From Thermoplasmatota archaeon (GTDB lineage Archaea > Thermoplasmatota > JAKEGO01): a DNA stretch of 64,000 nucleotides. Positions 22,501 to 48,384 of the stretch are shown one piece after another. Location: contig JANQNK010000020.1 in the NCBI GenBank assembly GCA_028279595.1, forward strand, positions 224,001 through 288,000, given 5' to 3'. The notes beneath the pieces are model-generated. The model saw only the letters and a list, made by a program, of their open reading frames with translations, was not told the origin of the DNA and ran no database searches. Position 1 is the first letter of the stretch, and the number at the start of each line of letters is the position of its first letter. Made by a program: the position numbers and the translations under genes.

Positions 22501-25500
22501 GGACGGCGATACCGTCACGCCTGGCTCCGACGATCACGAGACCGACATCCTCCATCGGGAGGGCAAGCTCACGATCGTGAAGGACGGTCCGGATACCGCC
22601 TACCACGGCGACGATGTGACCTACACCTTCGAGGTGACCTACACCAGCGACGACGACTCCCCGGCAAAGGACGTGACGGTCGTGGACGACACCTTCGGTA
22701 CAGCTTCCTACGTGAGCGGCGATACCGACTCCGACGGACTGCTCGACACCGATGAGACCTGGACCTTCGAGGTCGAGGGAACCATCGACGACCATGAGGA
22801 CGACGAGGAGGACCCGCTTGTCAACGAGGCCACCGCATCCGGTCAAGACCTGGATGGCGACGACGTGACACCCGATACCGACGACCACAGCACCGACATA
22901 CTCCACAGGGAGGGAAGGCTGACGGTCGAGAAGTCCGGACCTGCCACCGCCTACCACGGCGATTCCGTGACCTACACGTTCGAGGTGACCTACTACAGCA
23001 CCGACGGCTCACCGGCCGACAACGTTCTGGTAATCGACGACACCTATGGCTCCGCGACCTACGACAGCGGGGATACCGACGGCGACGATCTGCTCGATGT
23101 CGGTGAGACCTGGATATTCAAGGTCACAGGGACCATCGGCGCACACGTCGACGGCGAGGAAGACCCGATCGTGAACACGGTCACCGTGACCGGCGAGGAC
23201 CTGGACGGCGACGCCGCCACATCCGACACCGACACCCATTCGACCGACATCCTCCACCGTGAGGGCGAGTTGACCGTCGTGAAGTCCGGCCCAGAGGAGG
23301 CCTACCACGGCGACGACGTCGAGTACACGATCGAGGTGACATACTCGAGCGATGACGACTCGCCCGCCGACAACGTGGAGGTCACCGACGACGTCTACGG
23401 CGACGGCACATACGTGAGCGGCGACACCGACGGCGACGGATTGCTCGACGTCGATGAGACCTGGAAGTTCACCGTCAGCGGTACTATACCGGACCACGAG
23501 GACGACGATGACGAAGAGATCGTGAACACGGCAACGGCGACAGGCGAGGACCTCGACGGCGACACCGTCACCCCGGGCAGCGACGAACACACCACCGAGA
23601 TCCTCCACACCGCCGGCGAGCTGACGGTGACCAAGACCGGACCATCGAGCGCGTACCACGGCGATGATGTCGAGTACACCATCAAGGTGAGCTACTTCAG
23701 CTCCGATGGATCGCCAGCCCAGAACGTGTTCGTCGAGGACGACAAGTACGGCGTGGCGACCTACGTCAGTGGTGACACCGACGGCGACGGCTACCTAGAC
23801 ACCGACGAGATCTGGACCTATACGGTCAGCGGCACCATCGGCGATTACGAAGATGATGAGGAAGACCCGATCATCAACACCGTCGAGGCCACCGGATACG
23901 ACTTAGACGGCGACGAGGTCGATCCAGGAACCGCGACCCACAGTACCGACATACTCCACTACGCTGGCGAATTGACCGTGGTAAAGAGCGGTCCGGCCGA
24001 GGCACACGATGGCGACCAGGTGACATACACGATAGAGGTGACCTACTCGAGCGACGACAACTCCCCCGCCCAGAGCATACTGGTAGTTGACGACATCTAC
24101 GGATCCGCTTCATACGTGAGCGGTGACACCGACGGCGACTATCTGCTCGACACGGATGAGACATGGACCTACTCGATCACCGAGTACATCGATGAGGCGG
24201 AGGACGATCCGATCGTGAACACGGCTACCGCCACGGGTTACGACCTGGATGGCGACTCGGTCACACCAGGCGAGGGCGAGCACTCGACGGACATACTGCA
24301 TCCGGATATCACCGTGACCAAGAGCGGTCCCGAGGAGGCCCACGAGGGCGACACGGTAACCTACACGATCAGCGTGGAGAACACGGGCGATTGCACGCTC
24401 TACGATGTGACGGTGACCGATGACGTCCTCGGCGATCTGACCTCCTACCTGACCGACACGACGCTCGACGTCGGCGAGACCGACACCTTCACGGTGACGT
24501 ACACGGTACCCACATCCAGCTGGACCACTGACGAACTGATCACCAACGGCGGATTCGAGACCCCTGTCGGGACGGACTCGGCGGGCTGGGACATCTTCCC
24601 GGACGGCACGACCGGTCTCGGCTGGTCGGTCGATTGGTACTCCACAGATACCACCTACGGCGGCGGTACCAGGCCCGAGACGGCCAACCTCGAACTCCAG
24701 TGGGGAGTGACCGGTTGGGATCCCGCCGAGGGAGACCAGTACGCCGAGCTCGACGCCGATTGGGACGGACCGGACGGAAGCCTGTCCGGGGAACCCGCAT
24801 CTGTGAGCATATACCAGGATGTCGACACCGACGACGGAGAGACCTACAGGTTGACCTTCGCCTTCTCCCCGAGGCCGGGACAGGACGAGACCCAGAATGT
24901 CCTTCTCATCCACTGGGGAGACACACTGGTCGACACGATCGAACTGGACGGCTCCTCGAACTCGGATTGTGAGTGGTACTACTACTCCTACGATCTCGTC
25001 GCAAGCGATGATACCATGGAGATAAGATTCTCCGACGGCGGCGATTCCGATTCCCTCGGAACGTTCCTCGACGACGTGAGCCTGCGCACCATGGACTACC
25101 TCACGAACACCGTTACAGTGACCGGAGAGGACAACCTCGACGAGGAGGTCACTGACAGCGACTCCCACGATCTCGACGTACTCCACCCGGAGATAGATGT
25201 AGTGAAGGTCGGACCGTCGGAGGCCCATGAGGGTGACACAATAACATACACCTTCACCGTCTCGAACCTCGGCGACTGCCCGCTCTACGACGTGACCGTC
25301 GAGGACGACATACTCGGAGACCTGATCGGCTACATGACGGACGACACGCTCTCCGAGGGCGAATCCGAGACCTTCGACGTCGAATACACCATACCCGACG
25401 GTACACAATCCGTCGTGAACACCGTGGACGTCGAGGGTACCGACAACCTCGGAGAGACCGTCTCCGACAGCGCAACACACGACATCCCGATACCGCTGAT

Positions 25501-27610
25501 CGTACTGCATCCGGACATCGAGATCACGAAGGTGGCCGACAAGACCACTGCCCGCGTGGGAGAGACCGTGACCTTCACGTTCACGGTGACGAACACCGGC
25601 GACTGCACTCTCTACAAGGTATACGTGATCGACGACATCTTCGGAAACCTGACGACCTGGCTCGAGGACACGACCCTTGACGCCGATGAATCCGAATCTT
25701 TCGACTACGAGTGGGAGGTCCCCTATCCGGAGCTCACCGGTTCGGACGACTGCGACTCGTGCGACGATGACGATGATGACACTGACGACTCCGGCTCCAG
25801 CTGCTGGGACAAGTACATGAAATGGTGCAAATGGTGGAAGTACCGCTCCTGCGACGACGATGACGACGATGATGACGACTGCGGTTCATGCGACGATGAC
25901 GACAATGGGTGTGATGACGACTGCACCAGTTGCGACGACGACGATGAATGCGATGACTGCGGTGGAAGCTACGGCGACGATGACGAGTGCGACGACTGCG
26001 GCTCGGCCAAGTGCGACGATGATTGCGGAGACGATTGCGACTGCGATGATTGCACCAACGATTGCGACGACGGCGATTGCGATCCCGACGTGGAACTCGT
26101 GACCAACGGCGGCTTCGAGAGCCCTGTCGGCACCCACAGCTCCGGATGGAACATCTACGACGACGGCACGACCGGCCTTGGCTGGTCCGTCGATTGGTAC
26201 TCGACGACCACATCGTACAACGGCGAGAGCAGGCCGGAGACCGCCCACCTCGAGATCCAGTGGGGCGTCAACGACTGGAACGCCGTCGAGGGTGACCAGT
26301 ACGCCGAGCTCGACACCGACTGGGACGGACCGGGCGGCGGACTCAACAAGGAGCCCGCCTCCGTGACCATCTACCAGGACATCGACACCGTACCTGGTCA
26401 GAAGTACAAGCTGACCTTCTCGACCTCGCCGAGGCCTGGCAAGGACGACGAGCAGAACGTGCTCCACGTCAACTGGGACGCCACCCTTGTCGACACCATC
26501 GAGGAGGACGGATCGTCCAACAGCAGGAACTACTGGACCAACCACTCCTACGTGCTGACCGCGACCGACACCACGATGACCCTGAGGTTCACCGACGGTG
26601 GAACGCCTGACTCGCTCGGGACGTTCCTCGACAATGTGAGCCTGCGGTGCATAGCTGACGACTGCTGCGACCTCGAGTGGCTCTACGATGAGCACAACAA
26701 CATCGTCGACGTCGCCGGCAAGGACAACCTCGGTCAGTGGGTCCAGGACTCCGACACCGAGACCGTGATCGTACTGAACCTGCCATACACCAACCTGACG
26801 AACTCCGAGCTCTGCTACTTCGACACCCTCGACCGCGACGGACAGCAGTTCAACCTGACCTTCGTGGACAAGGACTGCGAGGACGACGACGACGAATACG
26901 ACGACATCTGCTGCTGGAAGTACAAGCTCTGCGGTAAGCACACATCCTGCTGTGAGGGAGGCGACGACGATGATGACGACGACGATACTAGCACGGATAC
27001 CACGTACAAGCTCTCGTCGAGCACCCCGAGTCAGTTCTACTACAACGTGTTCCACATCGGCGAGGAGGGCGACGATTACTCGCTCGACATAACCATCCCG
27101 TATCCGTTCGTGACCCATGGACTGAACCCGATACACGTCTATAGCGGAGTGCGCTTCAGCAGCAGCGGTTGCTACATCCCGTGCGGAGACGAGCTCGAGT
27201 TCGACGAGAGCGGCACCGACACGACAACGAAGTCGGGTGCCCTCGGAATCCTGCTCTCGGACCACTCGGATGGATCTGTGACGATAACGATCGAGGGCAC
27301 CGTGCCCGAGAGCGGTCTTGTCTACATAACCATCTACCTCGACTACGGCCTCGAGGGCAAGAAGGGTTACACGCCGGACGACGACGACAATGCGGAACAC
27401 GACACCTACACCAACTTCGACATCGATCAGTTCACCGAGTACGTGTTCTCCGTGAGTGGAGATATGGAGGACGAGCTGACCATCGAGAACAACAACGTCT
27501 TCGAGGGCGACGGCGACGACGACACCGACGATCTGCCGCTGGACCCGACCATCGTCTTCTTCGCGATGGCCGCGGTGCTGATCATCTTCCGCAAGAAGCG
27601 CAGGTACTGA
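1..27610 (+). CDS. Giant repetitive cell-surface protein/adhesin (>9,200 aa, 5'-truncated by the window): 77 DUF11-like Ig repeats, 2 DUF642-like domains, Cys/Asp-rich segment, C-terminal membrane anchor
   Basis: The ORF track gives 77..27610, but the same frame is open from nt 2 (VLRTGIRILKEGPGTALVGETITYTV), so the real start lies upstream of the window. Repeats follow the pattern I-x-K-T-G-P...G-E-T-I-T-Y-T-I-T-V-x-N-T-G...D-x-L...P-L-x-N-T-V-T-V. The protein ends LPLDPTIVFFAMAAVLIIFRKKRRY. Confidence 0.93.
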   Translation, partial: VLRTGIRILKEGPGTALVGETITYTVTIWNTGEVPLYITKAYDGLLQEDMVTLVSPNPIPVGGSTSFTYTWTVSHDDNDPLINEIRIWSENSNGGDERYVTYWISTDIKYTGVEITKTGPTDAVVGEEIAYTIVVTNTGEVDLTITYLWDSLLGDLSGYITDGEITVGEEFETIIYDYTITTDDTDPLYNEVTVIGENDVGGDEVTDSADHTVDIHYTGVLIEKTGPATAEVWETITYEVTVTNIGDTDLYIDELEDTIIGDLSGYISDQVITVEEGSETFTYTYKVTDEYDPLINEITVEGSNYEGGETVTATDDHSVDLLRTGVEITKTGPSTAIVGETITYTVTIENTGEVDLHVTSLMDTLLGDVSGYLDDLVIAYGETDTITYQHTVTSTFDPLPNGININVENQYESDWISDNDDHSVDILRTGIEVTKTGPQTGEVGETITYTITIDNTGEVDLYITQFDDSLLGDLLDILGYGPSNPLVVEPLIDSFFDITYEIDIEDPDPLPNTVTVTGVNEKDDDQVTGGDDHSVDILRTGIEITKDGPSSAEMGEVIEYTITIKNTGQVDLYIYTLYDSLLNDLTSYITNPIAAGATVTFNYYYTVTHSDDDPLENGIYVSAYNYYGADGVVDYDSHTCDLKYARMSIEKTGPATAEVGEEIMYTITIYNDGEVDLYVSYLWDSYEGDLSGLITGGVITVAEGFETITYTRIVSGAYDPIYNEVEVIADNYYEGDEVTDTDSHSVDVLRTGVEITKTGPATAEVGEEITYTVTIENTGEVDLYIYALYDSLVGSLMSHITNPLAPGEIVTITYTYTVQQGDSDPLENTVTVRSYNWYQSDGRIESATHSVDIKYTDVSITKTGPTDAEPGDTITYTITVYNDGEVDLYIDSLMDSLLGDLILEISDGKITVAEGYETFTYDYLVLSSDPDPLINTITVVGSNSNDDDTVTDTASHEVDLQKVDFTIEKTGPETAEVWEQITYTVRITNTGDTDLYVTYLDDDIIGDLSGSVDPNPIPVGEYAEFTYLYTVTAEWDPLINEITMTGENELGEDEITKSDTHSVDLLRTGVEIYKEGPDIAMVGQEITYTVTVVNTGEVDYYVTYLDDTLIGDVSGYITDDVITLSEGSETFSYTHTVTAQYDPLPNAVNVNGQNQFGSDWVSDSDGHSCDILHPGVEITKTGPEEALVGEEITYTIRVTNTGETDLYITSLYDSILGDISSYVDGGVVTLAEEYDEFDVTYVVPQSTPDPLVNEVTVVGTTIHGGESVTASASHEVDILYTGVRIIKTGPLDAEVGETITYEVTVYNTGEVTLYITSLTDTLVGNLRDEISGYMITVAEGSETFTYTYTVTDTWDPLVNTITVNGENMYDANPVTDSSTVSVDVLRTGVEIYKTGPLEAEIGETITYEITVINTGDVTLYITSLEDTLGGDLTGYLASLELAAGAYDIFTYTYTVLATDPDPLGNTVTIEGWNQYDSDPVSDTDGHSVDILRTGVRIEKTGPTTAEVGQTIMYTIVVTNTGEVDLHLTSLSDTLGGDLLGQISGSVITTGEVSETVYYYHTVGSTPDPLPNTVTVTGWNSHDMDQVSAEDSHSVDVLHAGISIEKSGPETAEVGETITYTVTMTNTGEVDLYIDYLWDLLVGDQLWQITNPLEPGDSVTFTYQYTVQQNDEDNLYNWIYVEAYNQYQSDFVYDYEEVWVDILYTGVTIEKTGPETAEVGETIEYEVTITNTGEVDLYITYLWDSLVGDVSGLITNPIASGTSVTIYYYYTVQQDDPDPLVNEIWLRAWNQYQSDPQGGHDTHSVDILYTAISIEKTGPTDAEIGEEITYTITIYNDGEVDLKITYLYDTLLGNLLSEIPSGVVTYADGSYSFDYTYTVLLSDDDPLPNVITVTATNLYDSDPVGDEDDHSVNLKYTGVEITKTGPAIGEVDETITYTITIENTGEVDLYITDLDDTLLGDLIGEITNPIAPGDTFSFDYDYTIVLGDEDPLPNVVTVIATNEFGGNEVTDLARWFVDIPYTGIEITKTGPSTGEVGETITYTIKVDNTGEVDLYVTSLDDTLLGDLLDEISDGIITTTEDYEEFTYEYTIKDTDANPLPNVITGEGENQYGGDYVIDSAAHQVEILYTGMEVWKEGPYNAEIGETITYTIYIKNTGDVDLEITDIDDTLLGDLTSEVTGAIAPGATFSFDYDYTVLETDPNPIWNTVTVKATNQYDEDPVQDSDYWGVQLLYTGVEIEKSGPLTAEIGETITYTITVTNTGGVDLHLTELDDTVLGDLLYKISDAKITVAEGSETFTYDYTIPDPTSEPLDNTITVTATNQYGGDEVTDTASHSVDLMYTGVEIEKSGPTTAEVGETITYQIVVRNTGEVDLHISSLTDDILGNLIGYLASTTIAAGDYDYFDVDHVVEATPDHLINTVTVVGDNQYDADEVTDDASHECDVLRTGVTIEKTGPATAEIGEVIKYTITVTNTGEVDLYVTIDDTLLGDITAGITGGVVTTLEGSESFDYYYVVQWDDPDFLENEVTVTGKNVEGEDKVTDTDDHEVDLLYTGVTIEKTGPTTAEIGETITYYVTITNTGEVPLYIDYLDDSLVGDVSGLVSQPIAVGTSQTISYEYTVLENDPDWLENTIRLRVFNRNQMDAKVVSDSHSVDLLYTGVEITKTGPDYAEVGQTITYTITIKNTGEVDLYVYWLYDSLLGSLLGEITNPIAPGATVSFDYDYTVLWTDPTSLYNSITLYAYNYYEANVRMDSDDHTVTLLYADVEITKTGPTDAEIGETITYTIRVTNTGNVDLTITTLYDTLLGDLSGEITDGVITTTEGYEEFTYDYTVKQTDTDPLPNEIEVVATNQYGTDTVSDEASHSVNLKYTGMEVTKTGPATAEIMEYITWTISIENTGEVDLYITSLDDTMFGDILDTLGYDELNPLVIAPGDTWTVTISKNIFSSTDDPIENTVTVTATNQYDSDPQEGADSHEVDVLWASIKIDKSAVGTAQIGQTITYTIVITNDGEVDLDITYLWDTLLGDLSTYLSTGSIAAGTSETITVTYLVTDEYDPIENTVTVKAWNQFEADQVEASDDHSCDLLRTGMTMEKTGPATVEIGETVYWDYLVTNTGEVPIYLTHVDEVLIEDWYWPTPFYIGVGGSQSFYWGSGYTVTTADDDPLVNSATFYADNYYGEDEVQSTDDHESDILRTGIEVTKTGPEEAEVGETITYTITVKNTGEVNLYVTLIDSYYGDLTSYLTNPLAPGETQTFDYDHTILSTDDDPLVNTITASGVNQYQADPVSDEASHTVEILGTGVEITKTGPTTAEVWEEIVYTYTVTNTGEVDLYISSIDDSLHGELKNYISGGVITLLEGSETFTITHQVTQTPDPLVDEVTVYGENSNGGSQVQYYDDHTVDILYTGVEITKTGPAEAEVGEEITYTVTIKNTGEVDLYVTSLMDTLLGDVSGYLDDLVIPVGVTDTIQYTHTVTSVYDPLPNGININVENQYESDWKSDNDDHSVDILRTYLTVEKTGPADAEIGETITYTVTLTNDGEVELTITGMEDDLVDDVFDLLTDTTLDVGESVSISYTHTVAYLGPDPLLNTVTVTAENQYGEDEVEESDDHSVDILRTGVDILKEGPDFAMIGEVITYTITVYNTGEVDLYITKLEDSNVGDLSGEISGGVITVEEGFEVITYEWTVTLDDANPLKNQVVVIGVNQYGNDPVADSYCHGLWLLYTGVEIEKDGPEEAEVGEEITYTVTIENTGDVDLYITYLYDSLVGSLLGEITNPLEEGDSVTITYTYIVTEDYDPLVNTITVRGVNFYEADEQEETATHSVDVLRTDIDIWKQSPADAKIGDKIIYTITVWNLGEVDLYITELEDSLLGDLSIYITGGVVSVAEGKEVITYEYTVTDEYEPLINTIEVTAWNQYDSDEVSDAARSEVEILRTDVEIVKTGPETAELGETIEYEVTITNTGDVDLYITYLYDSLVGDLLDEITNPLEPGDSVTFTYEYTVKTTDQTPLENTIEVRGWNCHELDPTSDEDSHSVDLLRTGVRITKDGPDDAEIGETIIYTIVVYNTGNVDLHITYLWDSLLGDLSGEISGGVITVAEGSETITYEYTVTDEDPDELDNTVTVRGTNEFGEDEVEDDASHTVDLLYTSMEIWKEGPETAEIGETIYYKVYIQNIGEVDLYVTLIDDDPWGDLLAAIGQSPTDPWIVPVGQTSWITYTHIVTTSDPDPLINTVTVEAENQYGADPQDGEDSHSTDILRTGMEVTKTGPDNAEIMEYITYTITIENTGQVDLYITELDDSMFGDLLDSWGYDELNPLIIEPGDTWTVYISFNVFTSHSDPILNTVTVTGTNQYGADPQEDSDSHETDILRASIDIDKSAVETAQIGQTITYTIVITNDGEVDLDITYLWDTLLGDLSSYLSTGSIAAGTSETIYVTYLVTDEYDPIENTVTVRAWNQYDADQVEASDDHSCDLLRTGMTMEKTGPATVEIGETVYWNYHVTNTGEVPIYLTHVDEVLIEDWYWPTPYYIGVGGSQTFYWIGGYTVTTADDDPLVNSATFYADNYYGEDEVQSTDSHSSDVLRSDITIEKTGPATAEVGEEITYEVTITNDGEVDLEITYLYDSLVGSLLGELTTGWISAGSSETITYTYTVLSTDDTPLENTITVTGQNQYGEDEVSAEDDHSVALLKTGVRIEKYGPTTAELGQTITYTIRVTNTGNVDLTITDLDDTLLGDLYSEISGGVITTTEGFEQFTYDYTVTSADTDPLGNTITVDATNQFGGDPVSASDSHSVDILYADLSIEKSALTTAQVGQTLTYTFVITNDGEVDLDVTYFFDSLLGNLIGYLDTGTIAAGTSETITVDHLVTDVYDPIYNYVTITAWNQYDSDAQSDSDSHTCDLLRTGIDVAKTGPATAEVGEQYYYTYTVYNTGEVTLYFDTIQDTLKGDFTWTTPFAVPVGGNQVILWTYTATDEFDPIENTATFTGWNEYDEDEVTDSDDHEVDLLRTNIEITKTGPSSAVVGETIEYEITIENTGEVSLDITYLDDTLLGDLLGELTSTTIASGATVTIYVDYLVTDEYDPIENTVTVKAWNQYDSDPVEDSDDHSCNLLRTGVSITKAGGPDEASVGEDITYTITVTNTGEVDLHITYLWDSLLGDLSGYITGDVITVGEGYETITYDYTVQSGDPDPLINEVTVIGENSEGGDEVTDSAEHSVDLLLIGVIIEKTGPATAEVWEWITYTITVYNTGDVDLYIDELDDDIIGDLSGKISDGVITVAEGSETFSYLYKTTDVYDPILNTVTVVGTNEYDDDEVTESDSHSVDLLRTGIEIEKTGPETAMVGEEITYTITIRNTGEVDYYVTNLVDAIYGNMISEVDSPIVVGDTVSFTYDHTVTDAYDPLPNAININGQNQFGSDWISDSDGHSVDIYRTGVSITKTGPTEAQVGDTITYTIKVTNEGEVDLYIYELEDTILGDLSGEISGGVITTTEGYEEFTYDHVVSVDDDDPLLNEITVKGWNIHDGDIVTDSAEHSVNIVYVKGTLYVEKTGPATAYHGDEVTYTIYVTYDSSDDSPAQNVEVVDDLYGTATYVSGDTDGDGYLDTDETWEYEVTGTIPDHSEPETDPIVNTATATGENLDGDDVTPGEGSHSTDILHTEGEFTIVKDGPATAYHGDSVTYTFTVTYSSDDGSPADGGYVWDDHYGYATYVSGDTDSDTDMDVDETWIFEVTGTIHSTYYDGEENPIHNTVEVDGYDLDGDWCGPAYDDHYTTILHEEGTLYVDKQGPTVAYFGDSMTFNFYVTYESDDDSPADNIVVWDDHYGAPTYVSGDTNGDGYLDTDETWLYTRTVYLTSYYYDSHEDPIINTVEVTGTDLDGDTVTPGEDSHQTDILHREGEFTIVKDGPATAYHGDSVTYTFEVTYSSSDHSPAQYVQVYDDHYGYATYVSGDTDGDGKLDYSETWTYKVTGTIGAHYDGEEDPIVNEVMVWGYDLDDDFVGYAYDDHSTDILHTAGTLYVEKTGPATAYHGQTVTYWFYVTYESDDNSPADDVTVDDNKYGTATYYGGDTDGDGLLDTDETWVFYVIVTIGDHEDDEEDPIVNTGKATGIDLDGDAVTPGEDTHETDILHYEGEFCIFKTGPATAYHGDDVTYTITVKYKSDDDSPAQYVEVVDSIYGDADYVSGDTDFDDLLDVDETWTFTVSGTIPDYSEPETDPIINTAKVTGKDLDDDVIEPAEDTHSTDILHREGRLTVEKDGPETAYHGDEVTYTFEVTYSSTDGSPADDVEVTDDVYGDATYVSGDTDGDGLLDVDETWVFEVTGYISSTHSDDEENPIVNTGTATGIDLDGDAVTPGKDSHETEILHREGELTIVKDGPTSAYHGDYVTFTFEVTYSSADDSPADDVKVYDDIFGYADYVSGDTDDDGLLDVDETWEFEVSGYIGLHDDDEDDPMVNTAEATGIDLDGQDVTPGEDSHETDLLHRAGTLYVDKTGPATAYHGDDVTYLIYVTYDSSDDSPATEVEVTDDVYGTATYVSGDTDDDDRLDEGETWVFKVTGTIPDYSEPETDPIVNTATATGEDLDGDDVTPGDDTHRTDILHTEGTLYVEKTGPAQVYHGDTVAYWFYVTYSSTDGSPADDVAVDDDKYGSATYYGGDTDGDGLLDTDETWLFYITVTIGDYEDDEEDPIINIGMATGVDLDGDAVEPGYGRHSTDILHREGTLYVEKCGPATAYHGDDVRYTIKVTYESDDNSPADNVEVIDSIYGDATYVSGDTDSDGLLDVDETWTYYVDGTIGAHDDDEDDPIINTAKATGTDLDEDPVTPGTDDHSTDILHTEGTLYVEKTGPAEAYHGQTVTYWFYVTYSSDDGSPADDVAVDDDKYGPATYYYGDTDGDGLLDPGETWVFYIIVTIGPYSDTAEDPITNTGKATGVDLDGDEVEPGYGRHTTDILHWDGILSVEKYGTEEAYHGDTVTYYFDVTYESDDDSPAQSISVVDDLYGSATYVSGDTDSDSRLDVGETWKYTVSGTIGAHDDDEEDPLVNTVTVTGEDLDGDTVTPGEDSHETDILHREGELSVRKDGPASVYHGTTATYTIYVTYSSDDNSPAQNVAVVDDLYGTATYVSGDTDTDDLLDVTETWRYTVSGTIGAHDDDEDNPIRNTATATGEDLDGDEVTPGEGFHDTTILHREGTLYVEKSGPATAYHGDEVTYTFEVTYESADDSPAVDITVLDDEFGYADYVSGDTDGDDRLDVTETWTYEITTTIGIYVDGEEDPLVNRVEVNGYDLDGDEVTPGEDEHETDLLYYVGKFCIDKDGPDEAYHGDTVTYTITVKYKSDDDSPAKNVEVVDDIYGTATYISGDTDGDGLLDVTETWKFEVEGEIGDYEEPEDDPIVNTATVTGQDLDDDDIPSSSDSHSTDILHRAGVLTVVKSGPATAYHGDDVTYYFEVTYSSDDDSPAQNVQVTDDLYGSASYVSGDTDGDNLLDVDETWVFKVEGTIGDYVDGADDPIVNTGTATGDDLDGDTVTPGSDDHETDILHREGKLTIVKDGPDTAYHGDDVTYTFEVTYTSDDDSPAKDVTVVDDTFGTASYVSGDTDSDGLLDTDETWTFEVEGTIDDHEDDEEDPLVNEATASGQDLDGDDVTPDTDDHSTDILHREGRLTVEKSGPATAYHGDSVTYTFEVTYYSTDGSPADNVLVIDDTYGSATYDSGDTDGDDLLDVGETWIFKVTGTIGAHVDGEEDPIVNTVTVTGEDLDGDAATSDTDTHSTDILHREGELTVVKSGPEEAYHGDDVEYTIEVTYSSDDDSPADNVEVTDDVYGDGTYVSGDTDGDGLLDVDETWKFTVSGTIPDHEDDDDEEIVNTATATGEDLDGDTVTPGSDEHTTEILHTAGELTVTKTGPSSAYHGDDVEYTIKVSYFSSDGSPAQNVFVEDDKYGVATYVSGDTDGDGYLDTDEIWTYTVSGTIGDYEDDEEDPIINTVEATGYDLDGDEVDPGTATHSTDILHYAGELTVVKSGPAEAHDGDQVTYTIEVTYSSDDNSPAQSILVVDDIYGSASYVSGDTDGDYLLDTDETWTYSITEYIDEAEDDPIVNTATATGYDLDGDSVTPGEGEHSTDILHPDITVTKSGPEEAHEGDTVTYTISVENTGDCTLYDVTVTDDVLGDLTSYLTDTTLDVGETDTFTVTYTVPTSSWTTDELITNGGFETPVGTDSAGWDIFPDGTTGLGWSVDWYSTDTTYGGGTRPETANLELQWGVTGWDPAEGDQYAELDADWDGPDGSLSGEPASVSIYQDVDTDDGETYRLTFAFSPRPGQDETQNVLLIHWGDTLVDTIELDGSSNSDCEWYYYSYDLVASDDTMEIRFSDGGDSDSLGTFLDDVSLRTMDYLTNTVTVTGEDNLDEEVTDSDSHDLDVLHPEIDVVKVGPSEAHEGDTITYTFTVSNLGDCPLYDVTVEDDILGDLIGYMTDDTLSEGESETFDVEYTIPDGTQSVVNTVDVEGTDNLGETVSDSATHDIPIPLIVLHPDIEITKVADKTTARVGETVTFTFTVTNTGDCTLYKVYVIDDIFGNLTTWLEDTTLDADESESFDYEWEVPYPELTGSDDCDSCDDDDDDTDDSGSSCWDKYMKWCKWWKYRSCDDDDDDDDDCGSCDDDDNGCDDDCTSCDDDDECDDCGGSYGDDDECDDCGSAKCDDDCGDDCDCDDCTNDCDDGDCDPDVELVTNGGFESPVGTHSSGWNIYDDGTTGLGWSVDWYSTTTSYNGESRPETAHLEIQWGVNDWNAVEGDQYAELDTDWDGPGGGLNKEPASVTIYQDIDTVPGQKYKLTFSTSPRPGKDDEQNVLHVNWDATLVDTIEEDGSSNSRNYWTNHSYVLTATDTTMTLRFTDGGTPDSLGTFLDNVSLRCIADDCCDLEWLYDEHNNIVDVAGKDNLGQWVQDSDTETVIVLNLPYTNLTNSELCYFDTLDRDGQQFNLTFVDKDCEDDDDEYDDICCWKYKLCGKHTSCCEGGDDDDDDDDTSTDTTYKLSSSTPSQFYYNVFHIGEEGDDYSLDITIPYPFVTHGLNPIHVYSGVRFSSSGCYIPCGDELEFDESGTDTTTKSGALGILLSDHSDGSVTITIEGTVPESGLVYITIYLDYGLEGKKGYTPDDDDNAEHDTYTNFDIDQFTEYVFSVSGDMEDELTIENNNVFEGDGDDDTDDLPLDPTIVFFAMAAVLIIFRKKRRY
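16581..24300 (+). repeat. 22 type-B intragenic repeats of about 117 aa (mostly a 351-nt period), each with a DxDxDGxLDxxE-type loop
   Basis: The unit EGxLxVxKxGPxxAYHGDxVTY...YVSGDTDGDGLLDVDETW...DPIVNT...HxTDILH recurs with starts at e.g. 19400, 19751, 20102, 20453 and 20804. Confidence 0.88.
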
Positions 27611-27621
27611 GCAACAAGCAA

Positions 27622-27670
27622 TGGAGGGGGGCGACCCCCTCCACCCCCCTCTTTTTTTTACTTTTTCTCT
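27622..27670 (+). terminator. GC-rich hairpin followed by T-tracts downstream of the giant gene
   Basis: TGGAGGGGG-GCGA-CCCCCTCCA (9-bp stem, GNRA loop) then CTTTTTTTTACTTTTTCT, between convergent genes. Confidence 0.7.
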
Positions 27671-27738
27671 TCAGCTTGAGCTGGGCCTCTTTCGTCTTAC
27701 CCTGGACTACAATAACCTTCAATATCGATCTCTCGTCA

Positions 27739-28644
27739 TCATAGGAAAAGGAACAGTGGGAAGTAGAGTATCAGAAGAATTATCCCCATCCACCGGGCCA
27801 TCTTGATCCTCGTCATTCCCATGAGGAGCACGGAGACCCCGATGACGATGGCGCCCTGGTACATCATGAAGCTGTTCGAGACCGCTATCGGACCGATCGC
27901 TCCCGCCACACCGAGGACGAGCAGGGTGTTGATGATGTTGCTGCCGATGATGTTTCCCACAGCGATCCCCTTGCTCCCCTTGAGCGTAGCAGCGATCGAT
28001 GCCGCGATCTCCGGCAACGAGGTCCCGATCGCTACGATCGTCAATCCGATGAGGAGCTTCGATACCCCGAATTCGGTCGCGATGCTCACGGCGCCCTCGA
28101 CCAGCAACCAGGAACCTCCGACAAGCGCTGCCGAGCCGGCCACCACCAGGACGAAGGCCACCACGAGGGAGTGCTTCGTCTCCTGACAGCCGCAGTCCCT
28201 GTGGCTGCGGTACAGATGAAAGAAATAACCACCGTAGAGGGCGAGAAATATGACGGCGTCGTACGTCGCGAACTCACCGTCCAGGGCCAATCCGAAGAAA
28301 AGGGCGATAGAACCGACCATAACGAACGAGTCCCGTTTCGCTTCCCTCTCCGGTACGAGCGATCTGATGAGCAACACTCCTCCGAGTGCAAGGCATATGT
28401 TCGCCATGTTCGAGCCCACGACATTCCCGAGAACCAGCTGCTGATGCCCTCCGAACGAGGCGATTATCGATGTAACGAGCTCCGGGGCCGACGTCGCGAA
28501 GGCGACCAACGTGAGTCCGATGAGATGTTCGCTCACGCCGAGGCGCTTCGCCACGGACACCGCTCCGTCAATGAAGACATCGCTGCCCTTGACTATCAGG
28601 GCCAGCCCGGCGATGACGATCGGAACGGCGTAGACCGGGTCCAT
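27739..28644 (-). CDS. Calcium/sodium (cation:Ca2+) antiporter, CaCA family
   Basis: Two alpha-repeats (ATSAPEL...GNVVGSN and GTSLPEI...GNIIGSN) and about 10 TM segments. Confidence 0.93.
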   Translation of the reverse strand: MDPVYAVPIVIAGLALIVKGSDVFIDGAVSVAKRLGVSEHLIGLTLVAFATSAPELVTSIIASFGGHQQLVLGNVVGSNMANICLALGGVLLIRSLVPEREAKRDSFVMVGSIALFFGLALDGEFATYDAVIFLALYGGYFFHLYRSHRDCGCQETKHSLVVAFVLVVAGSAALVGGSWLLVEGAVSIATEFGVSKLLIGLTIVAIGTSLPEIAASIAATLKGSKGIAVGNIIGSNIINTLLVLGVAGAIGPIAVSNSFMMYQGAIVIGVSVLLMGMTRIKMARWMGIILLILYFPLFLFL

Positions 28645-28699
28645 CGGGTCGAGATGGAGTGGTGACTATTTAATGGGTTGTCATGTGCGGATCGAAATA

Positions 28700-29533
28700 T
28701 CACAAATGAATGTCGATTCCGAAGACCTTGGACGGATTCTCGACATGAATGAGATGTGCCTGGTCCTCGGTCAGGTTCCCGTTCTCGAGCATCTTCCTTG
28801 TGACCTTCGGGATGGTCTTCGGACCGAGCACCGCACCCGGTCTCTTGAGATCGTCGATGTAGTCCGTTTCGAGCATGAAGTCGTTACCGCCGGCGAACGC
28901 CGTGAGGATGTTGTCCTCCTTCGCCAGGATCGACAGGAACATACCGAGGTCTCCCGCGATCGCCGTTGCCGGTGGAGCGTAATGTTTGACAAGCTTCTGG
29001 GTGTCGAGCCCTGCTGTCGATGCCATCTCAGCAAGTTCAGCGTAGATGCCGTCCGATGTCTCGGAATGGACGATAACGGGACAACCTATCTCGGCTGCAA
29101 GCTCCATTGCATGGAGCAGCTGAGCCTTCGAGTCCTCACGTACCCAGGGCTCGACCGGGAAATGGGGCATTCCCACCTCGCCGATCCCCACGGCGTCGCC
29201 CTCGCGGACCATGTCGGCGGCGATCTCCATCGCTTCCATCATCAGCGGATGCGCGACGTCCCTCTCGACCTTCTCTAGGAGATGGGTATAATGGACCGGG
29301 TGCGGTCCCTGTATAGTGTTGACAACGGCTCCCTCTTCCCTTGCCAAATCGCGGAGTCGCTGCGTGGTGCCGAATTCCTCGCGGAAGCCTTCTGCGTCCC
29401 TGATGTCGATGCCGTAGGGCTTGTTCGCCAGGATGATGTGCGTTCCGCCCGTCTTCACGAAGTCCTTGACAGCCTCGCCACCGCGTCCATCCGGGCTCAG
29501 GTGCATGTGCGAGTCCGTGATCGGCATTTCCAT
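28700..29533 (-). CDS. TatD-family metal-dependent hydrolase (archaeal type)
   Basis: DSHMH, GIGEVG, IVHSE and ETD motifs. Start moved to MEMPITDSHMH; the longer ORF crosses the divergent promoter region. Confidence 0.88.
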   Translation of the reverse strand: MEMPITDSHMHLSPDGRGGEAVKDFVKTGGTHIILANKPYGIDIRDAEGFREEFGTTQRLRDLAREEGAVVNTIQGPHPVHYTHLLEKVERDVAHPLMMEAMEIAADMVREGDAVGIGEVGMPHFPVEPWVREDSKAQLLHAMELAAEIGCPVIVHSETSDGIYAELAEMASTAGLDTQKLVKHYAPPATAIAGDLGMFLSILAKEDNILTAFAGGNDFMLETDYIDDLKRPGAVLGPKTIPKVTRKMLENGNLTEDQAHLIHVENPSKVFGIDIHL

Positions 29534-29713
29534 GGGCCGATGAGCGAATTCGCGATATATATCTTCATCGATGGAAGGAAGACGCGCTCGTCGTCGTCCC
29601 CGTGGGACGACAACGCGTATCACCCGCTCTGGAATGGTCATTCCAAAGTTGGATCCTAGATGGGAACGATAATAAGATTTATCTGTGGGTATTTTCATGG
29701 TATCCCAGGTGAG

Positions 29714-30532
29714 ATGTTGCGACAACCTGCCGTAGCGGGACGGTTCTACGAGGGCTCAGCGGAGGGCCTTAAAAAGCAGATTGAAGCCTGTTACATGCAC
29801 GAGTTGGGTCCTGGCCGTTTGCCGTCCCTGAGCGATGGGAACGACGTTACGGGACTGGTATCCCCCCATGCGGGCTATACCTTCTCAGGTCCGGTGGCCG
29901 CACACGGCTTCCTCGAACTCGGATCGAAGGGATTGGAGGGGAAGACAGCGGTGATCATCGGTCCGAACCATACGGGGATCGGGCCGCCGGTATCCGTCAT
30001 GATGGACGATTACAGCACCCCTCTGGGTGTGGCACAGGTGGACCGCGAGATCGCTCAACGGATAATCGACGCCGGCTTCCAGGAGGACTCGATGGCCCAT
30101 CTCCACGAGCACTCCGTCGAGGTACAGGTCCCCTTCCTTCAACATCTAACGGAGGATTTCAGGATCGTCCCGATAGTCATGATGGCCCAGAACCCCGACA
30201 CCGCCCGGTCCCTTGGCAAGGCGCTTTCGGAACTCCCGCAGGATGAGGTTGTCTATATCGCATCGACCGACTTCTCCCATTACATCTCACGAGAGAGGTG
30301 CCAGACCACGGACGCGATGGCCATCGACAGGATCCTGGAAATGGACGCACCGGGCCTCTACAGGACCGTCATGGAGAAGAGGATATCGATGTGCGGCTTC
30401 GGTCCCGTCATGACGGTCGTCGAGGCCATCGGGCGCGGGGAGGCCACCCTATTGAAGCAGACGAACTCGGGCGACGTGATGACGATGGATGACGTCGTCG
30501 GTTATGCCTCGATAAAGATGGTACGGAATTGA
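29714..30532 (+). CDS. MEMO1 family protein (AmmeMemoRadiSam protein B)
   Basis: RQPAVAGRFY, PHAGY, GPNH, EHSVEVQ, STDFSHY and SMCG motifs. AGGTGA RBS precedes ATG 29714. Confidence 0.93.
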   Translation: MLRQPAVAGRFYEGSAEGLKKQIEACYMHELGPGRLPSLSDGNDVTGLVSPHAGYTFSGPVAAHGFLELGSKGLEGKTAVIIGPNHTGIGPPVSVMMDDYSTPLGVAQVDREIAQRIIDAGFQEDSMAHLHEHSVEVQVPFLQHLTEDFRIVPIVMMAQNPDTARSLGKALSELPQDEVVYIASTDFSHYISRERCQTTDAMAIDRILEMDAPGLYRTVMEKRISMCGFGPVMTVVEAIGRGEATLLKQTNSGDVMTMDDVVGYASIKMVRN

Positions 30533-30606
30533 CGGTGAACTCGCTCGATGACGCTGAAGCGGTCATCAACGCGCTTACAATTAATCGGTAGAACAGGTCT
30601 TCAGTG

Positions 30607-30620
30607 CGAAAGATTATTAA
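30607..30620 (+). promoter_or_regulatory. BRE/TATA promoter of the gcvH-ftsY cluster
   Basis: CGAAAG-ATTATTAA about 40 nt upstream of gcvH. Confidence 0.55.
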
Positions 30621-30661
30621 CGACGACCCGTCTTTCCGAACGTCCCACCCGAGGTGATGGT

Positions 30662-31045
30662 ATGGACATGGAGAGGCTGAAGTTCACGGAGAGCCACGAA
30701 TGGGTTTCGATCGAGGACGGAGAGGCGGTGATCGGCATCACCGATTTCGCCCAGTCCGAGCTCAACGACATCATATACGTGGAGTTCCCCGAGGTTGGGG
30801 CCACGCTCAACAAGGGCGAGGTCCTGGCAGTGCTCGAATCCGTCAAGGCGGCCGAGGAGGTCTATTCACCTCTGACCGGCGAGGTCCTCGCGATCAACGA
30901 TTCGCTGGACCCGGAGCCAGAGCGGATCAACCAGGACCCCTTCGGCAACGGATGGATCGTCAAGATAAGGCTTGCAGACCTGGCGGAGACCGAGGCCCTC
31001 TTAGCGCATACCGATTACACCAGGGTCCTGGAGGACGCGAAATGA
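30662..31045 (+). CDS. gcvH: Glycine cleavage system H protein (lipoyl carrier)
   Basis: HEW, IGITDFAQ, ESVKA lipoyl-lysine and INQDPFGNGW motifs. GAGGTGA RBS. Confidence 0.95.
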   Translation: MDMERLKFTESHEWVSIEDGEAVIGITDFAQSELNDIIYVEFPEVGATLNKGEVLAVLESVKAAEEVYSPLTGEVLAINDSLDPEPERINQDPFGNGWIVKIRLADLAETEALLAHTDYTRVLEDAK

Positions 31046-31230
31046 GGCGTTCGCTACTGGAGATCCTGGCATGTCCGGACTGCAGGGCTCCCGTCGAGCT
31101 GGCTGGGGTCGAGAGCGAGGACGACGCTGGTGTCGTGGCCGGCAACCTGAAGTGCACCAAGTGCTCCAGGGAGTTCCCGATAATCGATGGGATCCCCCAC
31201 ATGCTTCCGGCCGGCTCTGGGGACGATTGA
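31042..31230 (+). CDS. Trm112 family methyltransferase activator
   Basis: MRRSLLEILACPDC...LKCTKC...FPIIDGIPHML (C-terminal part of ORF 30700..31230). ATGA overlap with the gcvH stop. Confidence 0.9.
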   Translation: MRRSLLEILACPDCRAPVELAGVESEDDAGVVAGNLKCTKCSREFPIIDGIPHMLPAGSGDD

Positions 31231-31235
31231 AGGTG

Positions 31236-31472
31236 ATGGAAATGAACGGATACAAGGTCAGCGGAAGGTTCAAGATGGGCGACAACTGGATGCCCTTCGA
31301 GATCGAGCTGGTGGCGGAGTCCGAAGAGGGTGCCCATGAGAAGGGCCTCTCGGTGATCGGCTCGAGGCACCGGACGAAGCGCAAGGACATCGAGATCGGT
31401 ACTATCTCCTCCATAACTGCCGAGGAGGCCACCTCACCGGTGGTCCAGTACCACCTGGAGGCCTCCAAGTGA
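31236..31472 (+). CDS. rpl18a: 50S ribosomal protein L18Ae/LX
   Basis: YKVSGRF...AHEKGLSVIGSRHRTKRKDIEI, directly upstream of pfdA-ftsY. The start may be 31242. Confidence 0.88.
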   Translation: MEMNGYKVSGRFKMGDNWMPFEIELVAESEEGAHEKGLSVIGSRHRTKRKDIEIGTISSITAEEATSPVVQYHLEASK

Positions 31473-31897
31473 CCGAGATGGAGAAGGAGATAGTCCAACT
31501 CAGGATGATCGAGAGGGAGCTCCAGGCCTACCAGGGCCAGATGGAACTCCTGACCGCGTCCATCCAGACCCACAAGAAGGCCGTCGAGACCCTCGACGCC
31601 ATACCCGGTCTTGGGGCGAACGACGAGATCCTCGTACCGATCGGAGGCGGCGTGATACTGAAGACCAAATGGAACGAGGGCTCCGGTGTCATGGTCGACA
31701 TCGGTTCAGGGATAGTGGTCGAGGAGGACGCTCAGCCGATCCGTGACAACGTGAACGGCCGTCTGCACCAGATCGAGGCCTCGTTGACCAAATTGGACGC
31801 ACACGTGAGGGAGCTGCAGGCCCAGTACGCGATGCTCTCGCAGAAGATCCAGCAGGCCTACCAGGGGGCCGGAGATGTTCAAGAACCTGCGGGATAG
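31469..31897 (+). CDS. pfdA: Prefoldin subunit alpha
   Basis: Coiled coils flanking EILVPIGGG...VMVDIGSGIVVE; conserved synteny with LX and ftsY. Confidence 0.92.
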   Translation: MTEMEKEIVQLRMIERELQAYQGQMELLTASIQTHKKAVETLDAIPGLGANDEILVPIGGGVILKTKWNEGSGVMVDIGSGIVVEEDAQPIRDNVNGRLHQIEASLTKLDAHVRELQAQYAMLSQKIQQAYQGAGDVQEPAG

Positions 31898-32810
31898 GAT
31901 ATCAAAGGCCAGCGAGGACGCCGCGGTCGAGATCGAGAAGGACGTCAAGCACGGCAAGCGCATGAACGAGAAGCGCCTCGACCAGATCCTGTGGGAGCTG
32001 GAGATCGCACTTCTCGAGGCCGATGTCGCGCTGCCCGTCGTCGAGGCCATCAAGGAGGAGATGAAGCACCGTCTCGTCGACGCCAAATTTTCGAGGAAGG
32101 TCGACATCGAGGACTCCATAGAGAAGGCCCTCAAGGGTGCGCTGCTCAAGATCCTCGGAACCAACAGGATGAGCCTCGTGAAGGCCGTGGAGACCGGTGA
32201 GAAGCCGTTCGTCATCATGTTCGTCGGCGTCAACGGCACGGGGAAGACCACGACCATCGCTAAAGTGGCCAACCGGCTGCTCAGGCGCGGAAACTCCTGC
32301 GTCCTGGCCGCCGGGGACACCTTCCGGGCGGGAGCGATCGAACAGCTGATAATGCACGGGGACAAGCTCGGTATCAAGGTCATTCATCAGAAGGCGAACA
32401 GCGACCCCGCTGCGGTCGCCTATGATGCTGTGGAGCACGCCAGGGCCAGACGCAAGGACGTGGTCCTCATCGACACGGCCGGCAGGATGCAGACGAACAT
32501 CAACCTGATGGATGAGCTGAAGAAGATCAAGAGGGTGACGAACCCGGACCTCACGATATTCGTGGGAGACGCACTCGCCGGCAACGATGCGGTCGAACAG
32601 GCCATCAAGTTCGACGGTGCCGTCGGACTGGACGGAGTAATCCTCTGCAAGGTGGATGCCGACGCCAAGGGTGGTGGGGCTCTGTCGATCACCTATTCGC
32701 TTGGAAAACCGGTCCTATACCTGGGTGTCGGACAGGAGTACGACCAGATCGTGCCGTTCCAGCCGAAATGGCTCCTGGAGCGCATGCTCGAGGGCGACGA
32801 GGACGAGTGA
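31875..32810 (+). CDS. ftsY: Signal recognition particle receptor FtsY
   Basis: GVNGTGKTTT, DTFRAGA, DTAGR, KVDADAKGG and GVGQ motifs. Confidence 0.97.
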   Translation: MFKNLRDRISKASEDAAVEIEKDVKHGKRMNEKRLDQILWELEIALLEADVALPVVEAIKEEMKHRLVDAKFSRKVDIEDSIEKALKGALLKILGTNRMSLVKAVETGEKPFVIMFVGVNGTGKTTTIAKVANRLLRRGNSCVLAAGDTFRAGAIEQLIMHGDKLGIKVIHQKANSDPAAVAYDAVEHARARRKDVVLIDTAGRMQTNINLMDELKKIKRVTNPDLTIFVGDALAGNDAVEQAIKFDGAVGLDGVILCKVDADAKGGGALSITYSLGKPVLYLGVGQEYDQIVPFQPKWLLERMLEGDEDE

Positions 32811-32903
32811 GATTACTATTCACCTGATGCCTGGATAGTAAGAAATTAACATGTTCACCAAAACGTATATGGTGTATGGTGTTCATTTTCGGTCGGTGGT
32901 AAT

Positions 32904-34277
32904 GTGAAATATCATCTGATGGTGCTGCTCGTGTTCGTCATGTTCCTAGGTTCGACCATGACCGCAGCGGCCGATTATCCCAACGATTGGACCCACAGAC
33001 CTGTTTTGGAGCATTTCACGGGACTGTCCTGTCCTCCGTGCATGTCGGGGGCACATCCCGATTCCACACAGCTGTGGCAGGAGGAGGGATACACCGAGGG
33101 CAATCCCTGGAACTACATCGAGTTCCATGAGCTCAACGGAGGCGGCGAGGACGACCTCATGACCGACGAGTCCGAGGACAGGATGCGATACTACCAGCCC
33201 GGTGTGTCCGGCACCCCGTCCCTCGAGGCTGACGGCGGATATGTCCAGCTGGGCGGATCACATGGGTCCACAGCTGACGCGAACTACGCCGACATGAAGG
33301 AGGCGCTCGCGGACTCCGGCAACAGGGACGCCATCAAGAAGGTGAAGTTGGATGTCGTCTCCAAGTTCGACGGCAGCGAGTTCGTCATCAACGTCACTGT
33401 CGAGTACCTCCAGAACGATGAAGCGTTCGATCCGTTCAACCCCCTTGCTCCCGATACGCTCAACGGGCTCCTTCACGTCTTCATGATCGAGGACAACGTC
33501 ACTGCCTGGAGCACGGTCAACGAGGAGTACGTCACCACGCACAACGTATTCAGGGAGTACGGGATGGAGGGCGAGGAGATCACCCTCGAGGTCGGAGAGA
33601 CCTGGAACAAGATGGCAGTCTGGAACGTCCCGACCACGGCGATCCGCGACGGCGAGGAGGAGGAGATCCGAGTCCCGATCAACCCTCTCAATGTCTACCC
33701 GGTCGCTGTTCTCTATGACACCGACGACACGTCCTCCGGCAGAGGGGATGGCAGCGACAACAACGACGGTGGCGATGGTGATGGGACCCCGCGAGCACTC
33801 AACTCCGCCACCCCTATGAGCTCCGCCTACGACGCCGACCAGACCCCGCCGACCATCAGGGATATCACCCTGAAGAAGGAGGGCAAGAAGGTCAACGCAT
33901 CGCTTTACCTGGACGACAGGGACGACATCGCCGGAGCGATCATCCTTTACACTACGAGCCTTGGCGGGGATAACGAATCCGTTCCCACGTGGATGTCCGC
34001 CGAGATAAAGCTCAAGGCTTGCGTCGGCGACGTCTGTGACAAGAAGGAGAGTGGTCTCGGCTACGCGACCCTCGACATCACCCCCGGAACGGAGTTCTAC
34101 TTCTACGTCCTGGCCTACGATGGGGAGTGGACCCAGGCGACGTCGAAGCAGATGAAGGCCTCCGACTACATGAAGGTCAGCAGCGGTGGATCGGACGCGA
34201 CCCCGTTCGACCCGATGCTCCCGATACTGGCGTTCGCAATAGTCGCCATCATGGTCAGCAGGAAGCGCCGGAACTGA
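32904..34277 (+). CDS. Exported thioredoxin-like (CPPC)/Omp28-related protein with a C-terminal PFDP-TM-basic anchor
   Basis: Signal peptide, LEHFTGLSCPPC, GTPS, F-M-I-E-D-N...H-N-V-F-R, ending TPFDPMLPILAFAIVAIMVSRKRRN. Confidence 0.78.
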   Translation: MKYHLMVLLVFVMFLGSTMTAAADYPNDWTHRPVLEHFTGLSCPPCMSGAHPDSTQLWQEEGYTEGNPWNYIEFHELNGGGEDDLMTDESEDRMRYYQPGVSGTPSLEADGGYVQLGGSHGSTADANYADMKEALADSGNRDAIKKVKLDVVSKFDGSEFVINVTVEYLQNDEAFDPFNPLAPDTLNGLLHVFMIEDNVTAWSTVNEEYVTTHNVFREYGMEGEEITLEVGETWNKMAVWNVPTTAIRDGEEEEIRVPINPLNVYPVAVLYDTDDTSSGRGDGSDNNDGGDGDGTPRALNSATPMSSAYDADQTPPTIRDITLKKEGKKVNASLYLDDRDDIAGAIILYTTSLGGDNESVPTWMSAEIKLKACVGDVCDKKESGLGYATLDITPGTEFYFYVLAYDGEWTQATSKQMKASDYMKVSSGGSDATPFDPMLPILAFAIVAIMVSRKRRN

Positions 34278-48325: not shown

Positions 48326-48384
48326 TCCTATCACCTGTGACGGAAGCACGGCTGGAATGTATATCTTCATCCCCTAAATCGCGA

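Follow-up and report, generated by a model that had tools for sequence, protein, structure and literature searches.

Do two unrelated exported proteins encoded on one archaeal contig share a previously undescribed protein-sorting signal, or do they carry a modified form of a known one? This study addressed the question in a 64,000-nucleotide stretch of the genome of an uncultured Thermoplasmatota archaeon (G000:C18:224001-288000, hereafter the window; the genome, G000, comprises 2.29 Mb in 21 contigs, is 86% complete, and is assigned to this phylum by its named relatives). In this window, a giant surface protein and a smaller CPPC protein both end in P-[L/F]-D-P followed by a short hydrophobic helix and a basic cluster (hereafter PxDP tails). 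A preliminary description of the window had attributed these tails to a separate, undescribed archaeosortase-type system. The comparisons reported here lead us, on balance and with modest confidence, to read the tails as lineage-restricted, glycine-less derivatives of the PGF-CTERM signal. The relevant features of the window are as follows; the ranges quoted for the two tails, 27536-27610 and 34203-34277, take in the stop codon.

2..27610 (+): 3' 27.6 kb of the giant surface-protein gene; the open reading frame (ORF) is open at the window start and begins upstream
27536-27547 (+): PLDP motif of the giant protein, with the acidic linker GDGDDDTDDL directly before it
27548-27589 (+): hydrophobic stretch of the giant protein, TIVFFAMAAVLIIF, 14 amino acids
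27590-27607 (+): basic end of the giant protein, RKKRRY; stop codon at 27608-27610
32904..34277 (+): CPPC protein gene, 457 amino acids from GTG 32904 or 452 amino acids from ATG 32919
34203-34214 (+): PFDP motif of the CPPC protein, in the context SDATPFDPM
34215-34259 (+): hydrophobic stretch of the CPPC protein, MLPILAFAIVAIMVS, 15 amino acids
34260-34274 (+): basic end of the CPPC protein, RKRRN; stop codon at 34275-34277

The giant ORF spans 13,752 amino acids stop-to-stop (G000:C18:210352-251607). Its N-terminus carries a signal-peptide-like, Sec-type signal sequence, and DUF7507/CARDB/DUF11 repeats together with a choice-of-anchor-C/DUF642-like module lie within the last 999 amino acids before the tail. 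The protein ends in GDGDDDTDDL-PLDP-TIVFFAMAAVLIIF-RKKRRY, and the single P[LF]DP in all 13,752 amino acids is located exactly at this tail. The CPPC protein is an exported Omp28-related or thioredoxin-like CxxC protein, in which a Sec-type signal peptide is followed by a body ending in LAYDG, a Gly/Ser linker, and the tail; its C-terminus reads SSGGSDAT-PFDP-MLPILAFAIVAIMVS-RKRRN. The C-terminal segments of the two proteins are TIVFFAMAAVLIIFRKKRRY and MLPILAFAIVAIMVSRKRRN. The preliminary description was accurate in these respects: both tails were read from the sequence as claimed, their anatomy is that of a sortase signal (an acidic or Gly/Ser linker, the motif, a hydrophobic stretch of 14-15 residues, and a terminal basic cluster), and the two carriers are unrelated proteins that both possess Sec-type signal sequences.

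The combination of features is rare in the genome. A six-frame scan for P[LFIVM]DP followed by a helix and a basic end identified only the giant and CPPC ORFs. The frequency of P[LF]DP in long ORFs was 2.2e-5 per residue. Among the approximately 105 C-terminal tails comprising a helix and a basic end, the number expected to carry P-[LF]-D|P where the helix begins is 0.001-0.007 if residue frequencies do not depend on position; the probability of two or more is about 2e-5, before correction for the post-hoc choice of the motif. A chance origin of the shared motif is unlikely.

A third PxDP tail was found in the sister genus, represented by G001, the sole other genome of the same family compared (73% complete). 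The G001 CPPC gene is a positional orthologue, because prefoldin, FtsY, CPPC, a convergent second Omp28-like gene, and tRNA endonuclease follow one another in the same order in both genomes. Its tail, STPLDPTITMFALAVAVLLVRRRR, keeps TPLDP, and both this tail and that of the giant protein read PLDPTI. FtsY shows 72% identity between G000 and G001, as against 37% for the CPPC body and approximately 37-41% for the CPPC protein. TP[LF]DP has been retained although both the helix and the protein body diverge, and because the motif was kept while its surroundings drifted, it is real and probably under selection. A family tree of the CPPC bodies, built by a quick method, placed G001 on a long branch apart from G000; the conserved synteny overrode this result. 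DNA alignment of the tails revealed no long identical stretch and therefore no recent transfer of the tail.

Searches beyond these genomes added no further carrier. A profile of the three PxDP tails found nothing further in G001, G002, and G012, and no additional PxDP tail over 400 Thermoplasmatota genomes. When the tail profile was compared with 1.84 billion protein representatives at E<=0.001, the G001 orthologue alone was returned, and a word-indexed search of 5.8 billion proteins returned only the CPPC protein itself and the G001 protein. Short tails score weakly in huge databases and such misses do not prove absence, but the searches rule out a large, well-conserved P[LF]DP family. Neither 60 relatives nor JGI metagenome contigs yielded an orthologue of the C-terminus of the giant protein.

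The CPPC family itself links the tails to a known signal. PGF-CTERM occupies the aligned tail position in the CPPC orthologues G002/P0004, P0039, and P0055. The closest of these, G002/P0004 (62% identity), has the tail GDAPGFEVTT...RRRR, and the tails of P0039 and P0055 contain TPGFEF and LPGFDV, respectively. In a MAFFT alignment of the C-termini, TPFD stood under PGFE, with the F and the acidic residue in register. The usual PGF tail of Thermoplasmatota reads [T/I]-P-G-F-[D/E]-P, followed by approximately 15 uncharged residues and an Arg/Lys cluster; examples are LPGFDPMFTIF (G209/239/245), IPGFDPVFVAI (G002), ATPGFDPMFLIF (G009), and the tails beginning with IPGFEP in G046, G002, and G038. 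Because this is the usual form in the phylum, the CPPC tail, ATPFDPML, can be read as ATPGFDPMF minus Gly, and we infer that the motif was derived from a PGF tail.

The proportions of the tails point in the same direction. A census of G000 identified approximately 17 PG[F/M] tails, approximately 30 PEF tails of two kinds, and many plain anchors. Counted from the last acidic residue to the basic cluster, the uncharged stretch was 14-16 residues in 14 of 17 PGF tails (median 15), 15-20 in PEF tails (median 17), and mostly 18-26 in the plain anchors of large proteins. The corresponding stretches were 15 and 16 residues in the PxDP tails of G000 and 15 in that of G001, and PxDP tails resemble the PGF and PEF classes in having just 5-6 residues after the helix. 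We also scored the tails with an external PGF profile, constructed from 12 tails of other Thermoplasmatota with the trailing Pro included; these tails had been picked via body homology or TIGR04126, and none via the PxDP profile. The canonical PGF tails of G000 scored 36.5-14.4 bits. The CPPC tail scored 19.9 bits (rank 14), which is above five canonical tails and inside the canonical range. By this profile, the CPPC tail appears to fall within the PGF class, and the tail of the giant protein is borderline.

Several observations weigh against a PGF origin. With the external profile, the tail of the giant protein reached only 13.9 bits (rank 22), on a par with the top-scoring PEF tails, and with a profile of 14 canonical PGF tails from G000 itself, the two PxDP tails scored 9.9 and 9.6 bits, like PEF tails. 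Neither tail was matched by TIGR04126, the curated PGF-CTERM model (cut-off 24.5 bits), at E<=10; this miss is weak evidence, since four of five obvious G000 PGF tails also fell below the cut-off. The defining Gly of P-G-F is missing from both PLDP and PFDP, and in Haloferax volcanii, permuting PGF to PFG blocks processing by ArtA (review PMC6098224). No orthologue of the giant protein was found that could reveal a PGF ancestor.

The curated models offered no alternative assignment. Among NCBIfam CTERM models, the PxDP tails produced only sub-threshold matches to JDVT, Loki, and Heimdall. Of the NCBIfam models, JDVT-CTERM (NF033191, cut-off 27) matched the CPPC tail best, with 18.1-18.7 bits for fragments and 14.3 for the whole protein, and scored 11.2-11.4 bits on the tail of the giant protein. 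Loki-CTERM and Heimdall-CTERM (cut-offs 19.9 and 24 bits) gave the latter tail 14.7 and 12.5 bits, with the alignment confined to its helix and basic part. We dropped curated CTERM scores as evidence in either direction because the obvious PGF and PEF control tails of G000 mostly failed as well. The earlier claim that the motif lies outside known CTERM models was borne out insofar as no curated model passed; the external PGF profile nevertheless placed the CPPC tail in the canonical range.

The absence of the Gly and the Haloferax permutation result favor another explanation, namely that the tails descend from PGF-CTERM signals that are no longer processed and have become ordinary C-terminal anchors, in which Asp-Pro merely caps the helix. 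Anchors have been swapped among CPPC orthologues, which end in PGF-CTERM, in a plain helix with a cytoplasmic tail, or in a fusion to a CcdA-like membrane domain, and many members of the family elsewhere are of the plain-helix type. Another G000 protein (C9, 1237 amino acids) begins a plain 23-residue anchor with D-P-T-I, and the low scores with the own-genome profile would also be consistent with decay. However, the 14-15-residue hydrophobic stretches are shorter than most plain anchors and match the processed classes, and the retention of TP[LF]DP between genera despite divergence of the helix and body would be unexpected for a dead motif. We regard decay as possible, with perhaps a minor share of the probability, and prefer the view that the tails are glycine-less PGF derivatives that still function.

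If the glycine-less tails are still functional, a processing enzyme would be expected among the archaeosortases of the genome, of which three genes were found.

G000:C1:58880-59767: ArtA (TIGR04125, 141.3 bits, cut-off 75)
C14:105192-106337 (-): ArtC-like archaeosortase (51 bits, under the cut-off)
G000:C18:363747-364715 (locus L003:919-1881): third archaeosortase, 320 amino acids, matching the generic TIGR04178 signature alone (35.7 bits)

We infer that one of these three still recognizes and cleaves the glycine-less tails. By analogy with ArtA of Haloferax volcanii, Sec would export the giant and CPPC proteins, the short C-terminal helix would hold them transiently, an archaeosortase, most parsimoniously ArtA, would cut near the motif, and the mature protein would be left lipid-anchored on the cell surface. 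The ArtA orthologue of G001 is 55-57% identical to that of G000 and is the only archaeosortase detected in G001. We dropped the argument that G001 has only ArtA; a PEF tail is present in G001 and no ArtC was detectable, and the 73%-complete assembly therefore evidently misses archaeosortase genes. The artA neighborhood in G000 (C1:56000-63500, L159) contains TrmO-like, small multidrug export, GMP synthase, and aspartate dehydrogenase genes, and artA is not flanked there by pssA/pssD.

The separate system proposed in the preliminary description would require P[LF]DP-CTERM to be a signal served by an enzyme of its own, such as the third archaeosortase. This enzyme is encoded on the contig of the window, approximately 76 kb past the window end, and has no NCBIfam subfamily, no Pfam match, and no adjacent cargo gene; the failure of every curated CTERM model and the occurrence of the motif on non-homologous proteins, with conservation in G001, also fit a distinct signal. 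Nevertheless, the carriers number two in G000 and one in G001, the database searches found no PxDP tail elsewhere at the thresholds used, and the loss of one residue from PGFDP explains the motif. All three archaeosortase orthogroups of G000 are shared with G002 and G012, in which no PxDP tail was found, and the third archaeosortase has weaker matches in nine further genomes, also without a PxDP tail. It was not found in G001, an assembly that lacks other archaeosortase genes too. No PxDP cargo occurs in the neighborhoods of the three enzymes. Phyletic profiling against archaeosortases, as had been suggested, thus revealed no pattern and tied no dedicated enzyme to the motif; the gaps in the G001 assembly limit how firm such a profile can be. 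A separate signal is accordingly an improbable reading, and slightly more doubtful still is the specific form in which P[L/F]DP would be the cognate signal of the third archaeosortase, an undescribed pair anchoring the giant protein and an extracytoplasmic thiol-oxidoreductase. Only two proteins of the genome carry the motif, an outcome that the preliminary description had itself named as refuting its reading. The tails are better read as PGF[D/E]P lacking its Gly.

Pure coincidence between two unrelated plain anchors is very unlikely: Asp and Pro abound in the linkers and the choice of motif was post hoc, but the expected count is just 0.001-0.007, and the syntenic G001 orthologue supplies a third case that shares PLDPTI with the giant tail. 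Least credible of all is cleavage by an intramembrane protease, either a glutamic-type CPBP enzyme (as for JDVT-CTERM/MrtJ) or a rhomboid (as for GlyGly-CTERM/rhombosortase); it would accommodate the weak JDVT-CTERM match of the CPPC tail, its Asp-Pro, and the presence of one CPBP gene and one rhomboid gene in G000, but neither tail contains Cys, the DP precedes the helix, the protease genes are unlinked to the window (contig C9 and C18:385 kb), JDVT scores are similarly weak for obvious PGF and PEF tails of G000, and JDVT-CTERM is a Pseudomonadota signal adjacent to its protease, defined by an invariant Cys that is followed, nine residues on, by a DP within the helix (10.1101/2023.06.07.544157).

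If the glycine-less PGF derivatives are still cleaved, ArtA of Thermoplasmatota would tolerate the loss of a residue thought essential in Haloferax, and curated PGF-CTERM models would under-count the surface proteins of this phylum. The reading bears on how the cell envelopes of uncultured archaea from marine and sediment habitats are annotated, and within that on how a 13,752-amino-acid protein is anchored; it opens no new class of sorting machinery.

Other surface proteins of G000 also depart from the PGF motif. Three paralogues of an Ig-like surface family of approximately 320 amino acids carry the endings TPFLSTVE, LPFLSPFE, and LPAYDP.

C9:49964-50875 (-): Ig-like family paralogue
C1:42665-43630 (+): Ig-like family paralogue
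C7:64938-65843 (-): Ig-like family paralogue

Because these paralogues diverge where their relatives keep [IVT]PGF[DE]P, erosion of the PGF motif, as judged by sequence comparison, extends beyond the giant and CPPC proteins. A wider 'TPF' class that would include C4:12781 (transglutaminase-like, TPFVGTE) was rejected, given that the N-terminal membrane helix of the latter makes a two-pass topology possible.

The gene neighborhood of the two carriers was also analyzed. Na/Ca exchanger, Memo, GcvH, ribosomal L18Ae, prefoldin, and FtsY genes lie between the giant and CPPC genes, and because these housekeeping genes separate them, the two form no operon or unit of a filament plus partners; the earlier picture of a giant filament and its partner proteins was not upheld. 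A second exported Omp28/DUF1223/thioredoxin-like protein with a CPYC motif is encoded at 34344-35342 (-) of the window, convergent with the CPPC gene, and has a plain-helix anchor with a long Lys/Arg-rich cytoplasmic tail. Synteny with G001 extends over both genes and the regions on either side of them. ORFs of approximately 790-950 amino acids carry the CPPC-type domain in other families of the phylum and end in a multi-pass membrane domain (loci L018-L022 and L024-L026, in G049, G035, G046, G019, G009, G029, G038, and G058), which is annotated as CcdA/redoxin in P0062 and P0066. Because the CPPC-type domain is joined to a membrane domain so annotated, this arrangement suggests that the family may comprise extracytoplasmic thiol-disulfide oxidoreductases fed by CcdA.

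The preliminary description had also placed a PEF-tailed protein at 47615 and suggested that two sorting systems may coexist. Both statements held: the protein is real, and the genome encodes three archaeosortases alongside PGF tails and PEF tails of two kinds.

47615-48370 (-): cupredoxin (plastocyanin-like) surface protein with a PEF-type tail, 'TGTVIPEFG', ending VIPEFG...WRRRTR

The two PEF tail families of G000 have arrays at C12:16237-40491 and C19:248399-271320. The 'APEKVPEF' type occurs on at least 20 proteins, mostly in the single C12 array, and the 'TGT[VI]IPEFG' type on five proteins, four in the C19 array plus the cupredoxin of the window; among 60 relatives, the latter type was found outside G000 only in G001. 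In addition, three tandem paralogues of 1,170-1,300 amino acids (G000:C14:92021-102815, +) have tails of another type, 'E[VT]G[APT]LW..[SV]E' followed by a helix and a basic end, and lie approximately 2.4 kb upstream of the ArtC-like archaeosortase gene.

Tails of a further kind, '[S/T/I/V]-P-L-[P/G]' (for example, SPLPLPFLAL...RRRR), occur on many proteins of Thermoplasmatota genomes with a single ArtA-like archaeosortase; the loci include L117, L120, L125, L130, and L135 (G154), L116, L121, L126, and L131 (G132), L086 (G127), and L115 (G018). No specific NCBIfam CTERM model matched these tails. In G154, G018, and G132, the sole archaeosortase is ArtA-like and such tails are numerous, which shows that ArtA-type motifs drift in Thermoplasmatota. 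A profile of [STIV]PL[PG] tails gave the CPPC tails of G001 and G000 34.9 and 31.1 bits, respectively, scores that are partly circular because the tails had been found via the PxDP profile.

Of the closest known systems, PGF-CTERM shares many features with the PxDP tails. Both are tripartite tails at the extreme C-terminus after a Gly/Ser/Asp linker, with a core of Pro-x-aromatic/aliphatic-acidic residues, approximately 15 uncharged residues, and then an Arg/Lys cluster; both occur on unrelated Sec-exported surface proteins, and ArtA is encoded in G000. They differ in that P-F-D-P and P-L-D-P replace P-G-F-[D/E]-P and in the number of carriers, which is 2 in G000 compared with 17 PGF tails. 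PEF-CTERM (TIGR03024)/archaeosortase C shares the tripartite layout and coexists in G000, with approximately 30 tails and an ArtC-like gene. However, its motif has the order P-acidic-hydrophobic, whereas that of the PxDP tails is P-hydrophobic-acidic-P, and its hydrophobic stretch, with a median of 17, exceeds theirs; the PxDP tails have no P-E-F directly before the helix and no match to PEF models. JDVT-CTERM/MrtJ (NF033191/NF033192) is similar in its near-invariant Asp-Pro and its few carriers per genome, but is distinguished by the invariant Cys, the mid-helix DP, the occurrence in Pseudomonadota, and the adjacent CPBP protease, none of which is found with the PxDP tails. The [S/T/I/V]-P-L-[P/G] tails (G154, G132, G127, G018, G201, and G348) share the P-L-(x)-P core, the short helix, and the RRRR end, whereas they lack the Asp between Leu and Pro and belong to other families of the phylum.

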